From the NCBI RefSeq assembly GCF_003334385.1, contig NZ_QOWN01000005.1: a stretch of 64,000 bases of DNA, one strand, 5' to 3'. Positions 52,351 through 62,805 of this stretch are shown in pieces (position 1 is the stretch's first letter; each line of letters opens with the position of its first letter). This DNA comes from Escherichia coli (GTDB lineage: Bacteria > Pseudomonadota > Gammaproteobacteria > Enterobacterales > Enterobacteriaceae). Below the pieces are notes generated by a model. The model was not told where the DNA came from. It saw nothing but the letters and a program-made list of their open reading frames with translations, and ran no database searches. A program made the position numbers and the translations under genes.

Positions 52351-53502
52351 TTAATCAGCTTGCTTACGCAGGAATGCTGGGATATCCAGATAATCCGGCT
52401 CTTTCGCAGTTTGCGGCGCATTGTCATTCACGACTTTAGCAACCGGCTTCTGCTCCTGGGTCAGCGGAGCCATCCCATGCTGCTGGTAGCGATCCATCAC
52501 TGGCTGCTGAACCTGCTTATTGGTCACCAGAGTGATTTCAGGACGTTTGTCCATGCCGATACCTGTCGCAACAACGGTTACGCGCAGCTCGTCATTCATA
52601 TCCGGGTCAAGAGAAGTACCGATAACCACAGTCGCGTTGTCGGAAGCAAATGCACGGATGGTGTTACCTACCGTTTCGAACTCATCCAGACGCAGGTCGA
52701 AGCCCGCCGTGATGTTAACCAGCACGCCGCGCGCGCCAGACAGGTCGATATCTTCCAGCAGCGGAGAAGAGATAGCCATTTCAGCAGCTTCTTCCGCACG
52801 GTCTTCACCGCTCGCCACGCCAGAACCCATCATTGCGTAGCCCATCTCAGACATTACGGTGCGTACGTCTGCAAAGTCCACGTTCATCAAACCCGGACGA
52901 GTAATCAGTTCAGCGATACCTTGCACAGCGCCTTTCAGTACATCGTTCGCTGCGCCAAACGCATCCAGCAGGGAGATACCGCGGCCCAGAACTTTCAGCA
53001 GTTTGTCGTTCGGGATAGTGATCAGAGAGTCCACATGCTTGGACAGTTCAGTGATCCCCTGCTCCGCGAATGCCATACGCTTCTTGCCTTCAAAGTTGAA
53101 AGGCTTAGTGACGACAGCAACGGTCAGGATACCCAAATCTTTTGCCACTTCAGCGACGACTGGTGCTGCACCTGTACCGGTACCACCACCCATACCCGCA
53201 GCAATAAAGACCATGTCTGCACCTTCCAGCGCCGCACGCAATGCATCGCGATCCTCATCAGCCGCATTGCGGCCAACTTCTGGATTAGCGCCAGCGCCCA
53301 GTCCTTTGGTGATACCGCTACCGATTTGAATCGTCTGTCCAACCGCTGTTTTACGCAGCGCTTGTGCATCGGTATTTACCGCGAAGAATTCAACACCTTC
53401 AATGCGCTCGCGCACCATGTGTTCAACAGCATTACCGCCGCCGCCGCCGACGCCGATGACTTTAATCACCGCGTCATTGGTAAGTTCCATTGGTTCAAAC
53501 AT
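52351..53502 (-). CDS. ftsZ: cell division GTPase FtsZ
   Basis: 383 aa with tubulin signature GGGTGTG. Confidence 0.97.
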
Positions 53503-53562
53503 AGTTTCTCTCCGATTTGTGCCTGTCGCCTGAGGCCGTAATCATCGTCGGCCTCATAAAAA

Positions 53563-54825
53563 TTAAAACTCTTTTCGCAGCCAACTATTGAGTCGCTTGA
53601 TCCACGAGCCAACTGATGCTGTAACACGTTTTTCTACTTCAGCTTCACCGTTAAGATGTGACTCTTTCCCATAGTGAAGCAATCCCACCGCCGTCGAATA
53701 ATACGGCTCCTGAGCATAATCCGTTAAACCGGTAATGTTCAGCGGCGCGCCGATACGCACTTGCGTATGAAACACGCGCTGAGCACAGGCTGCAAGACCT
53801 TCGATCTGCGCTGCGCCACCGGTTAATACAATGCCTGCCGCCAGGTGATGTTTAACCCCTTGTTGGCGAAGCTTTTCCTGCAACTGCAATATCTCTTCGT
53901 TGACCAGGTTGAGCAGCTCGGTATAGCGCGGCTCGATCACCTCTGCCAGTGTCTGACGTTGCAGACTCCGTGGCGGACGACCACCTACGCTCGGCACTTC
54001 CACGCTCTCATCTTTTCCAACGATGGAACCCAGCGCACAACCGTGGCGAACTTTAATCGCTTCGGCGTCGCTTGGCGGCGTGCCAAAGGCGTAAGCGATA
54101 TCACTGGTCACGACATTGCCAGCATAAGGAATTACCTTAGTGTGGCGCAATGCCCCACCGGTATAAACGGCGATATCCATTGTACCACCACCGATATCGA
54201 CGACGCAGACACCCAGTTCACGTTCATCTTCCGTCAATACCGAATAACTTGATGCCAGTCCGGCAAATATCAGTTGGTCAACTTTCAGCCCACAACGTTC
54301 AACCGCTTTGACGATGTTTTTCGCCATATCGTTGTGACATGTGATCAGGTGCACTTTTGCCTGCATCCGCACGCCCGAAAGTCCTACCGGATTCTTGATC
54401 CCTTCCTGATAGTCAATCGCATACTCTTGCGGGATCACATGCAGCACACGATGCTCATCGCGCACACGCACCGATTTCGCGGTATGGACGACGTTTTCCA
54501 CATCTTCTTGCGTCACTTCTTCTTCAGAAATAGGCACCATACCAATTTCATTCTGGCAGCTGATGTGCTTACCAGAAAGCGCCAGATATACCGAAGAGAT
54601 CTGACAATCTGCCATCAATTCTGCCTGGTCAATGGCGCGTTGTACGCACTTGACCACGGATTCGAGGTCGTTCACCCCGCCTTTATCCATACCACGCGAC
54701 GGGCAGCTGCCCACGCCAATGATATTGACCATACCGTCGGGCAGAACTTCCCCTACTAAAGCGGCAACCTTCGCGGTACCAATCTCCAGTCCTACTACCA
54801 GTTTTCTGTCCGTCGCCTTGATCAT
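53563..54825 (-). CDS. ftsA: cell division protein FtsA (actin-like ATPase)
   Basis: 420-aa translation recognised as FtsA. Confidence 0.96.
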
Positions 54826-55652
54826 TGTTGTTCTGCCTGTGCCTGATTTTGTTGCTGAGTAGATTCCTCTGGCGGCAAGGGCGCCCAGCCTACTGCCGCT
54901 CCAGAGTCATAACGCAAATCAACGTAGCTAATCCGTTTGCCATCGGTTTGCGCCTGCTGCTGTAAAACCGGATAAAGTTCTACAAAGCGAGCCAAACGTT
55001 TCATCGTATCGCCCCGGCCAAGATTGAGCTTAATATCGTTATTCAGCGTCAACTGCCAGGAACGCCGCGCGGTCATCGCCGCTTCCTTCAGAGTAAATCT
55101 GTCCTTTGCCAGCATCTGCCCCATTTCGCGATAGCCCTGCAACACTTCATTGGCGCTGCCTTCCGGGCCATACAGCATTGGAAGCACCTGCTTGCTGGTG
55201 CGTTCTGGCGGCACGCTGAAGGTATTTCCTTCCGCGTCTACCATATGTTGATCATTCCACCGCGCAATCGGCACATATTCAACCAGATGAATCTTCAATT
55301 CATCAGGCCACTGCTTTCTGACGCTCACCTGCTTAATCCACGGCAGGCGTTGTTCTATTTGCGTCTGGATGATGTTGACATCCTGGGTCATAAAGGTACC
55401 CGGCTCACCCAATGCCAGGATCGACTGCCGGATATCGTCATTACGTGTGTAATGGCGTTCACCGGTCAACACCAGCTTTGAGAGCGGCAGGCGTTGCGCA
55501 TCTTCCATCCAGCCCAACACGACCCAGCCGCTCACCAACACTGTCGTTAAAACGGTCAGCAGGAAAAGGATCCCCGCCAGACGCGTTCCATTATTGCGGC
55601 GAGAAGAAACCTCTTCTTCGCTGTTTCGCGTGTTCAGAGCAGCCTGCGACAT
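54822..55652 (-). CDS. ftsQ: cell division protein FtsQ
   Basis: 276 aa, single TM; overlaps the ftsA start by 4 nt. Confidence 0.95.
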
Positions 55653-60404: not shown

Positions 60405-61720
60405 CAACCTAACTCCTTCGCCAGACGGGCAAACTCATTGCCTCGTTGTTCAAAGTTCTTGAACTGATCAAGGCTGGCACAGGCTGGGGAGAGCAGAACC
60501 ATATCGCCCGGCTGAACACGCGGAGCCAGCAAGCGCATCGCCTGTTCCATAGTTTCGGTTTGTTCTGCCACTTCCGGGCGTAGCGCCGCCAGCTGCGCGC
60601 CGTCACGACCGAAACAATACAGACGTACGTTATCGCCATTCAGGTAACGCGCCAGTGGGCTAAAGTCCGCCGATTTACCATCGCCACCCAGCAACAAATG
60701 CAGTGTGCCGTCTACGTGCAGGCCATTCAGCGCCGCTTCCGTACTGCCGACGTTGGTCGCTTTCGAATCGTTAATCCAACGTACGCCGTTATGCTCCAGC
60801 ACAACTTCAAAGCGATGCGGCAGACCAGTGAATGTGGTTAACGCTTTCAGGCTGCTGGCACGCGGTAACCCTGCAGCATCTGCCAGCGCCAGCGCCGCCA
60901 GCGCATTGGTGTAGTTATGCTGCCCGGAAAGTTTCATCTCTTTCACATTCAGCACTTTCTCGCCTTTAACCCGCAGCCAGGTTTCGCCCTGCTGATGATT
61001 CAGGTGATAGTCACCCATGTTGACGCCAAAGCTGACGCAGCGTTCATCCGCACCGCGAATCGGCATTGTTAAGGCATCATCAGCATTAACCACGCAAACT
61101 TTCGCGTTTTCGTAAATGCGCAGTTTTGCTGCACGATACTGTTGTAAACCAAACGGATAGCGATCCATATGATCTTCAGTCACGTTCAGAATGGTCGCTG
61201 CTACCGCCTGTAAGCTGGAGGTGGTTTCCAGCTGGAAGCTCGACAGTTCCAGCACGTACAGTTCACACTCATCATCCAGTAGCATCAACGCAGGCAGGCC
61301 AATATTGCCACCCACACCAACGTTAACCCCCGCCGCTTTCGCCATTTCACCCACTAGCGTGGTGACCGTGCTTTTGCCGTTAGAACCGGTAATCGCCACA
61401 ATCGGTGCTTGTGCTTCGCGACAGAACAGCTCGATATCGCCAACGATTTCGATTCCGGCATCAGCGGCAGCGCTTAAGGATGGATGCGCCAGTGCAATAC
61501 CGGGACTGGCGACAATCAGATCTGCCGCCATCAGCCATTCATCATTCAGACTGCCCGTGTGGCGTTCTACGGCTTCGGGTAATTTATCCAGGCCAGGCGG
61601 TGTCATACGCGTATCCATAACGCGCGGCGTCACACCGCGAGCGAGGAAAAAGTCCACGCAGGAAAGCCCGGTGAGGCCCAGGCCGATAATGACGACATTT
61701 TTACCCTGATAATCAGCCAT
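60404..61720 (-). CDS. murD: UDP-N-acetylmuramoylalanine--D-glutamate ligase
   Basis: 438-aa Mur ligase (GSNGKST motif). Confidence 0.96.
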
Positions 61721-61722
61721 GA

Positions 61723-62805
61723 TTAACGTACCTTCAGCGTTGCCAGACCAATCAGAACCAGCATCAGCGAAATAATCCAGAAACGCACAATGACGCGCGG
61801 TTCCGGCCAGCCTTTCAGTTCATAGTGGTGATGAATCGGTGCCATGCGGAAAATACGTTGTCCGCGCAGTTTAAAGGAGCCGACCTGCAGGATGACAGAA
61901 AGCGTTTCTACCACGAACACGCCCCCCATAATCACCAGCAGGAATTCCTGACGTAGCAGTACGGCGATAATGCCTAACGCACCACCTAACGCCAGCGAAC
62001 CTACATCGCCCATAAAGACCTGCGCCGGATAGGTGTTAAACCACAGGAAGCCCAGTCCTGCCCCGACTATCGCGGTACAGACAATAACCAGTTCCCCGGC
62101 GTGTCGCAGATACGGTATATGCAAGTAGCTGGCAAAGTTCATATTGCCGGTCGCCCACGCCACCAGCGCAAAACCACCGGCGACAAATACGGTCGGCATA
62201 ATTGCCAGGCCGTCGAGACCATCGGTCAGGTTTACCGCGTTGCCAGTACCCACAATGACGAAGTAAGCCAGCAGAATGTAGAACAGCCCCAGCTGCGGCA
62301 TCACATCTTTAAAGAATGGGACCACCAGCTGCGTTGCGGGCGTGTCTTTGCCGGCAAGGTACAGGGCGAAGGCGACACCCAGCGCAATGACCGACATCCA
62401 GAAATACTTCCAACGAGCGATCAACCCTTTGGTGTCTTTACGCACCACTTTGCGATAATCATCAACAAAGCCAATAACACCGTAACCTACCAGCACCACC
62501 AACACGCACCAGACGTACGGATTGGACGGGTAAGCCCACAGCAGTACGGAGATCACAATCGCCGTCAGGATCATAATCCCGCCCATGGTCGGCGTACCGC
62601 GCTTGCTGAAGTGTGATTCAGGACCGTCGTTACGCACCACCTGACCAAAGGAAAGTTTTTGCAAATGAGCAATCATACGCGGGCCCATCCACAATGAGAT
62701 GAACAGCGCGGTCAGCAGGCTGACGATGGCGCGAAACGTCAGATAGGAAAAGACGTTAAAGCCGGAATAATATTTGACCAAATGTTCGGCCAGCCAAACT
62801 AACAT
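61723..62805 (-). CDS. mraY: phospho-N-acetylmuramoyl-pentapeptide transferase
   Basis: 360-aa polytopic membrane protein recognised as MraY. Confidence 0.96.

Follow-up and report, generated by a model that had tools for sequence, protein, structure and literature searches.

Tight gene junctions in the distal dcw cluster of an Escherichia coli contig and their conservation in Enterobacterales

The division and cell wall (dcw, or mra) cluster of Escherichia coli K-12 MG1655 has the gene order mraZ-rsmH-ftsL-ftsI-murE-murF-mraY-murD-ftsW-murG-murC-ddlB-ftsQ-ftsA-ftsZ-lpxC. It is transcribed from mraZp as long polycistronic messenger RNAs, in addition to transcripts from internal promoters (PMC5089854, PMC4462998), and the Rho-independent terminator of the cluster has been placed at envA (lpxC) (PMC5089854). 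Here we present an analysis of the distal part of such a cluster in another E. coli, at positions 52351-62805 of a stretch of 64,000 nucleotides (nt) from contig NZ_QOWN01000005.1 (assembly GCF_003334385.1), the whole of which is called the window below. An earlier reading made from the letters of this stretch alone, here the sequence-only reading, had described a tightly packed and intact dcw cluster, ordinary in kind, whose arrangement supports translational coupling and genomic channelling. Our results show an intact, reference-like cluster with junctions whose geometry is almost fixed across Enterobacterales, and they suggest partial translational coupling as the function of this geometry.

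The mechanism of closest relevance has been described for other overlapping gene pairs of E. coli. With reporter constructs, termination-reinitiation coupling has been shown for four of five such pairs (PMC6728339, PMC12548453), bioBF being the one pair without coupling, and the dependence of coupling on a Shine-Dalgarno motif varied among the pairs tested (PMC6728339). With overlaps written as negative and gaps as positive numbers, -4, -1 and -8 nt are the spacing classes enriched in prokaryotes, and the abundance of the -4 spacing has been attributed partly to its ease of evolution (PMC12548453).

The dcw cluster in the window

The gene set was read from the six-frame list of open reading frames (ORFs), and the junction codons were read directly on the minus strand. 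From 52351 to the end of the window at 64000 there are ten consecutive minus-strand genes, with no gap larger than 60 nt among them. They are listed below with the length of the product in amino acids (aa) and its NCBIfam match, followed by the last gene of the cluster.

52351-53502, minus strand: ftsZ, 383 aa; TIGR00065 equivalog, 471.7 bits; RefSeq coordinates
53563-54825, minus strand: ftsA, 420 aa; NF007009 equivalog, 913.4 bits; RefSeq coordinates
54822-55652, minus strand: ftsQ, 276 aa; NF008043 equivalog, 558.3 bits; RefSeq coordinates
55654-56574, minus strand: ddlB, 306 aa; NF002378 D-Ala-D-Ala ligase subfamily, 438.1 bits
56567-58042, minus strand: murC, 491 aa; TIGR01082 equivalog, 609.7 bits; RefSeq coordinates
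58096-59163, minus strand: murG, 355 aa; TIGR01133 equivalog, 377.4 bits; RefSeq coordinates
59160-60404, minus strand: ftsW, 414 aa; NF008042 FtsW equivalog, 851.8 bits, residues 10-414; RefSeq coordinates
60404-61720, minus strand: murD, 438 aa; TIGR01087 equivalog, 436.6 bits; RefSeq coordinates
61723-62805, minus strand: mraY, 360 aa; TIGR00445 equivalog, 539.9 bits; RefSeq coordinates
62799-64000, minus strand: murF, 3' 1.2 kb, start beyond the window end; NF008041 MurF equivalog, 812.9 bits, profile positions 54-453
51333-52250, minus strand: lpxC (envA), last gene of the cluster, 100 nt downstream of ftsZ; RefSeq annotation

All ten products from MurF to FtsZ match over their full length and lie far above the curated cut-offs of the profile scan, nine of them with equivalog models and DdlB with a subfamily model. 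Their content and order on one strand, murF-mraY-murD-ftsW-murG-murC-ddlB-ftsQ-ftsA-ftsZ-lpxC, are those of the E. coli-type dcw cluster. In the comparison with K-12 MG1655, 10,454 of 10,455 nt of the region are identical, and the RefSeq/PGAP gene coordinates of that strain map exactly onto the ORFs of the window; the murF of RefSeq, for instance, projects to 62799-64157 with its stop at 62799. Each ORF is a multiple of three nt long and has just one stop, at its end, and therefore contains no frameshift or insertion. The identity and the intactness of the dcw cluster are certain, and the gene names, the intact state and the ordinary character given by the sequence-only reading are all borne out, no frameshift or insertion being found at any junction where we looked for them. 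The region very probably represents the distal two thirds of the canonical E. coli dcw cluster, essentially identical to that of K-12. The cluster extends past 52351-62805 on both sides, with lpxC downstream and with murF and the earlier genes upstream, where the window ends within murF and leaves the first five and a half genes (mraZ, rsmH, ftsL, ftsI, murE and 5' murF) outside; in the K-12 annotation these sit immediately upstream of the region.

By megablast, the 10,455 nt have a match at 95% identity or more in 5,425 of 5,426 complete E. coli genomes, and at this identity at least 80% of the region is covered in 5,423 of them; the top matches, K-12 MG1655 among them, depart from the stretch by one base. 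The complete cluster was further met in eleven records of PLSDB (H41-H51), which range from 270 kb to 5.4 Mb and are all non-mobilizable; we rejected the reading of these 'plasmid' copies as mobile ones, and the records appear to be chromosomes with a wrong label, parts of chromosomes or very large (secondary) replicons. An arrangement of this kind is already known, textbook material rather than a discovery. An intact and reference-like cluster gives nothing to suggest altered cell division or cell-wall synthesis, and its significance is mainly one of bookkeeping.

The junctions between the ten genes, all on the minus strand, read as follows.

62799-62805, minus strand: murF/mraY junction, ATGTTAG, 7-nt overlap (-7)
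61721-61722, minus strand: mraY/murD junction, TAAtcATG, 2-nt gap (+2)
60404, minus strand: murD/ftsW junction, TGATG, 1-nt overlap (-1), ATG start
59160-59163, minus strand: ftsW/murG junction, ATGA, 4-nt overlap (-4)
58043-58095, minus strand: murG-murC spacer, 53 nt, not tight; hairpin inside
56567-56574, minus strand: murC/ddlB junction, ATGACTGA, 8-nt overlap (-8)
55653, minus strand: ddlB/ftsQ junction, TAAtATG, 1-nt gap (+1)
54822-54825, minus strand: ftsQ/ftsA junction, ATGA, 4-nt overlap (-4)
53503-53562, minus strand: ftsA-ftsZ spacer, 60 nt, not tight; hairpin inside

The seven tight values had all been given correctly before, as both the junction codons and the RefSeq/PGAP coordinates of K-12 MG1655 agree with them, while the two loose junctions, murG/murC (53 nt) and ftsA/ftsZ (60 nt), were absent from the earlier account. 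The tight junctions thus form two runs, murF-mraY-murD-ftsW-murG and murC-ddlB-ftsQ-ftsA, which the hairpin-bearing spacers part from each other and from ftsZ.

How unusual this packing is was judged against the other same-strand neighbour pairs (n = 30) that K-12 annotates in the remainder of the window. Junctions within -8 to +2 nt make up seven of nine in the cluster and four of 30 in this background (Fisher one-sided p = 6e-4), and for overlaps only the counts are five of nine and five of 30 (p = 0.03). Against a within-operon rate of about one third, which is assumed and not measured, five overlaps in nine are unremarkable (p = 0.14). The two comparisons together show that the cluster is unusually compact for the genome, and not extraordinary for an operon.

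Signals of transcription add little to this picture. A consensus scan gives 16 terminator-like sites versus 15.8 expected from shuffles, none of them in a spacer, and five promoter-like sites versus 10.2 expected; there is no excess of terminator-like sites inside the cluster. On the plus strand, an ORF of 393 aa (52360-53541) runs antisense along the full length of ftsZ, with the codons of the two in register. This ORF was rejected as a gene, being an artefact of codon usage, since ftsZ has no TTA, CTA or TCA codon.

Conservation and proposed function of the tight junctions

Based on one MurC scan of species-representative genomes, we collected 80 gammaproteobacterial loci. In each locus eleven genes were found by tblastn, and starts were called heuristically by alignment to the E. 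coli N-termini. Outside Enterobacterales these calls are noisy, with paralogue matches among them (values such as -127 and -2466 were filtered out), and the counts for distant taxa are approximate. The Enterobacterales comparison comprises 17 species other than E. coli, with protein identities of about 60-98%.

Across Enterobacterales the junction geometry is almost fixed. The value of the window recurs at murF/mraY (-7) in 16 of 17 species, at mraY/murD (+2) in 15 of 17, at murD/ftsW (-1) and ftsW/murG (-4) in 15 of 16 each, at murC/ddlB (-8) in 11 of the 13 with an intact ddlB, and at ddlB/ftsQ (+1) in 12 of 14. The least conserved tight junction is ftsQ/ftsA, with -4 in nine of 16 and with +2, +36 to +42 and +83 in the others. 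All seven values are identical in Klebsiella pneumoniae (PGAP annotation), and the divergent E. coli strain LS45 (98.2% identity) has a single extra base in the ftsA-ftsZ spacer, which affects no tight junction. The junctions murF/mraY, murD/ftsW and ftsW/murG remain tight or overlap in Vibrionales and 55 other Gammaproteobacteria as well, but at other values: the usual murF/mraY value is -4 among Vibrionales and -1 among Pseudomonas and others, and ftsW/murG takes -11, -8 or -4. The murG/murC spacer of 47-70 nt is specific to Enterobacterales, the junction being -8 or -4 in most other Gammaproteobacteria. Among about 75 scorable loci, ftsA/ftsZ and ftsZ/lpxC are tight in none. On the whole, tightness is constant at the junctions from murF to murG, is never seen in the spacers that precede ftsZ and lpxC, and varies at ftsQ/ftsA.

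The gene ddlB comes and goes within this frame. No Vibrionales, Shewanella or Aeromonas locus has it in the cluster, and in Pseudomonas it is flanked by gaps of about 55 nt. Within the interval between murC and ftsQ, four loci (L008, L014, L013, L031) show its loss, remnant or disruption: Mangrovibacter yixingensis and Acerihabitans arboris have no ddlB, with gaps of 113 and 77 nt respectively, Rosenbergiella gaditana has only a remnant, and in Enterobacter cloacae DSM 26481 the gene is disrupted at unchanged interval length.

Ribosome-binding sites were scored by the duplex energy with the anti-Shine-Dalgarno sequence, and their conservation was followed over 17 loci, one of which is E. coli K-12. 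The downstream genes fall into two kinds. Strong motifs (-6.6 to -9.5 kcal/mol) lie inside the upstream gene for mraY (CAGGAGA, 7 nt upstream, conserved in 17 of 17 loci), ftsW (AAGGAG, 7 nt upstream of the ATG, 14 of 17), murG (GAGG-type, at or below -6 kcal/mol in 16 of 17) and ddlB (GGAGGA, -9.5 kcal/mol, 10 of 13). In E. coli the motifs of murD (AAGGT, -4.0 kcal/mol), ftsQ (-4.8) and ftsA (-3.3) are weak.

Seven junctions at -8 to +2 nt have the stop/start proximity that is typical of termination-reinitiation pairs. Judged from this geometry and its conservation, partial translational coupling appears to be the most likely function of the tight junctions, and we hold this with somewhat better than even confidence. 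At such a junction, a ribosome terminating on one gene would reinitiate on the next, or would unfold its start region. The coupling may be assisted at mraY, ftsW, murG and ddlB by their Shine-Dalgarno motifs within the preceding gene, and it would be most important for the genes with weak motifs, murD, ftsQ and ftsA. It can be partial at most. The copy numbers per cell derived from ribosome profiling are 147 for FtsQ and 3335 for FtsZ, and FtsA amounts to about 670, as derived from about 200 ring molecules being 30% of the total (PMC4462998). Protein outputs that differ more than 20-fold along the cluster show that coupling is not stoichiometric, a ratio of 1:1 being ruled out.

Several observations weigh against coupling. 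The 4-nt overlap between ftsQ and the ftsA gene downstream of it does not keep FtsA (about 670) from being more abundant than FtsQ (147) (PMC4462998); ftsA must therefore also be served by independent initiation or by additional transcripts from ftsQ-internal promoters. The strong Shine-Dalgarno motifs fit independent initiation equally well. The overlap values are lineage-specific, murF/mraY being -7 in Enterobacterales, -4 in Vibrio and -1 in Pseudomonas, and in some Enterobacterales the ftsQ stop lies 36-83 nt upstream of ftsA with the same ftsA start region; these two points together show that the precise overlap is not required. Among such species are Photorhabdus and Providencia, in which the ftsQ stop is 36-42 nt upstream and the initiation region CAGGCAGAACAACA-ATG-ATC of ftsA is still conserved, so that what is kept there is this initiation region and not the overlap. 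That the +1 and +2 gaps do not vary could reflect a small mutational target alone. In addition, a full-text search of the literature turned up no study in which coupling was tested at the dcw junctions considered here.

The main rival explanation takes the tight junctions as a by-product of genome compaction and of the easy origin of ATGA and TGATG, with each gene initiated from its own ribosome-binding site and no important coupling. These motifs arise easily because three of the four bases are already present in the start codon, and ease of evolution has been given as the reason for the abundance of -4 (PMC12548453). This explanation would also account well for the differences of overlap values between orders, for the unchanged ftsA start region at a distance of 36-42 nt in Photorhabdus and Providencia, for the strong and conserved Shine-Dalgarno motifs of four of the seven downstream genes, and for the very unequal protein outputs, and bioBF offers an uncoupled precedent among the five tested pairs (PMC6728339). 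However, the dcw junctions are much tighter than the other same-strand pairs of the window (p = 6e-4), four of the five tested overlapping pairs are coupled, and murD, ftsQ and ftsA, with motifs of only -3.3 to -4.8 kcal/mol in E. coli, are expected to be translated poorly on their own. The murD/ftsW junction is also of weight here. The N-terminus of FtsW varies by up to 20 residues among Enterobacterales, being 7-20 residues shorter in some of them, and the ATG nevertheless remains on the murD stop, which favours a constraint on the junction geometry. We therefore rate compaction with independent initiation as a possible but doubtful explanation.

It is very improbable that some overlaps are artefacts of start choice, for example that FtsW starts at Met10 with a 26-nt gap in place of the 1-nt overlap, for although the NF008042 model begins at residue 10 of the 414-aa protein and an in-frame TTG lies one codon upstream of the annotated ATG, this ATG has AAGGAG 7 nt upstream where Met10 has no Shine-Dalgarno motif, it overlaps the murD stop in 15 of 16 Enterobacterales including species with the shorter FtsW, PGAP uses the same start, and at nearly all of the Enterobacterales loci inspected the remaining six starts line up with those of the orthologues at residue 1. 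The upstream TTG would make the murD/ftsW overlap 4 nt; the ATG is conserved across loci and the codon before it varies (TTG, CTG, CTA). The start of the model at residue 10 hints at past annotation from Met10, and the Shine-Dalgarno motif and the cross-species conservation favour Met1, the start overlapping the murD stop, as the probable start of FtsW.

Partial coupling therefore remains the reading that we prefer, and the functional claim of the sequence-only reading is supported in part. The constraints on the junctions described here could guide coupling experiments in an essential operon, as well as the design of recoded or refactored genomes.

Spacer hairpins and differences from K-12

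In both loose spacers a hairpin follows the stop of the upstream gene at a distance of a few nucleotides. The one in the murG-murC spacer has a stem of 7 base pairs (GCGATGC-CTTTT-GCATCGT, 58072-58090), and per-sequence folds of 16 Enterobacterales loci place a hairpin in the same position in 15 of them, the stem sequences being unrelated. The one in the ftsA-ftsZ spacer has 8 base pairs (53531-53556) and is followed by a conserved AGGCGACAGGCACAAA-CGGAGAGAAACT-ATG leader. For this stem, covariation was counted on a hand-specified structure, over seven of its pairs in 15 Enterobacterales: 93% of the cells are paired versus 15-55% with slid partners, six of the seven pairs show compensatory changes, and the score is reached by none of 500 shuffles. 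Neither hairpin is energetically exceptional against random 40-nt windows (median percentile 0.18 for murG-murC), and RNAalifold did not recover the hairpins on MAFFT alignments of both spacers, the alignments being poor and that of murG-murC too poor for a formal count. RNase E processing has been reported in the ftsA-ftsZ region; to our knowledge there is no description of the murG-murC hairpin.

These hairpins are the only mildly novel point of the analysis, and the lead is weak. The distal dcw cluster of Enterobacterales would consist of the coupled modules murF-mraY-murD-ftsW-murG, murC-ddlB-ftsQ-ftsA and ftsZ, split by position-conserved hairpins that serve in RNA processing, in stabilising 3' ends or in attenuation; the Enterobacterales-specific murG-murC hairpin (58072-58090) would replace the murG/murC overlap of other Gammaproteobacteria and set the expression ratio between the two modules that it parts. 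We consider this scheme unlikely as it stands.

The sole Rfam family matched inside the cluster is RF02797, PssrA (plasmid-encoded Shigella small RNA A), at 53494-53583 on the minus strand, full length with 105.5 bits; the match spans the ftsA 3' end, the spacer and the ftsZ start codon. We rejected a real small RNA gene at this place, as the original PssrA paper gives the Shigella virulence plasmid as the site of the gene, with CP0121 and ipaJ on either side of about 103842-103931. In view of this plasmid location the match is read as a probable coordinate mix-up in the family seed, which was probably taken from the chromosome at the coordinates of the plasmid.

The sole base difference from K-12 in 52351-64000 is at 56252, where codon 108 of ddlB is GAT (Asp) versus GGT (Gly) in K-12. 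An 81-nt probe with the GAT allele has no perfect match among the 5,426 complete E. coli genomes, 4,020 of which match at one mismatch. The exact 306-aa DdlB is present on 20 contigs of public draft assemblies under several NCBI accessions, showing that this is a rare natural allele and not an artefact unique to the window. In 61 gammaproteobacterial sequences, position 108 is Gly in 54, Asp in three, Asn in two and Gln in two. E. coli also has DdlA, so that a weakened DdlB would be tolerated.

Elsewhere in the window, further differences from K-12 were noted. At 42495-44285 on the plus strand, 787 nt are missing between copies of the direct repeat AGCCCAGCGTC (breakpoint about 43529-43542), which fuses hofB (gspE) and hofC into one ORF of 596 aa; none of the 12 best-matching complete E. 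coli genomes listed has this deletion, each aligning in two pieces. The yacH gene has a 12-nt deletion at about 28541 and a repeat region shorter by 96 nt at 29794-29954. Besides these changes, only three single-nucleotide polymorphisms (8628, 15639, 23091) were mapped in 896-29954, and the aligned block 29794-43542 has 11 further mismatches. The Rfam matches at 47181-47374 and 47778-47847 are listed as naRNA4 (REP-type, two matches) together with STnc40; naRNA4 lies between yacG and mutT, and STnc40 is in the spacer from mutT to secA, where it overlaps the start of secA.

Comparison with described systems

The dcw cluster of K-12 MG1655 is the nearest relative of the cluster in the window. 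The two agree in genes, order, strand, coordinates and junction geometry, and differ by one missense change, Gly108Asp in DdlB (56252). Genomic channelling, which is said to go back to Mingorance, Tamames and Vicente (2004), reportedly holds that the order of the genes favours the co-translational assembly, or the channelling, of their products. What bears on it in our cross-species loci is only the conservation of gene order. It had been put forward for this stretch as established knowledge, whereas the literature presents 'genomic channeling' explicitly as a hypothesis (PMC5089854).

With the termination-reinitiation pairs of Huber et al. 2019 (PMC6728339), the dcw junctions share the -4, -1 and -8 spacings and, in four of the seven pairs, the embedded Shine-Dalgarno motif. 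Unlike in those pairs, the outputs of the dcw genes are not equimolar and coupling is suggested by spacing. The -7 overlap and the +1 and +2 gaps of the dcw cluster fall outside the classes of -4, -1 and -8 named as enriched among overlapping pairs (PMC12548453).

The clusters of Vibrio, Shewanella and Pseudomonas keep the orders murF-mraY-murD-ftsW-murG-murC and ftsQ-ftsA-ftsZ-lpxC, and in them, too, the mur/ftsW part is tight and the spacers before ftsZ and lpxC are always loose. They differ in the exact overlaps and around ddlB, which is not in the cluster of Vibrionales, Shewanella and Aeromonas and stands between gaps of some 55 nt in Pseudomonas; and murG/murC, overlapping in Vibrio, Shewanella and Pseudomonas, is spaced in Enterobacterales.

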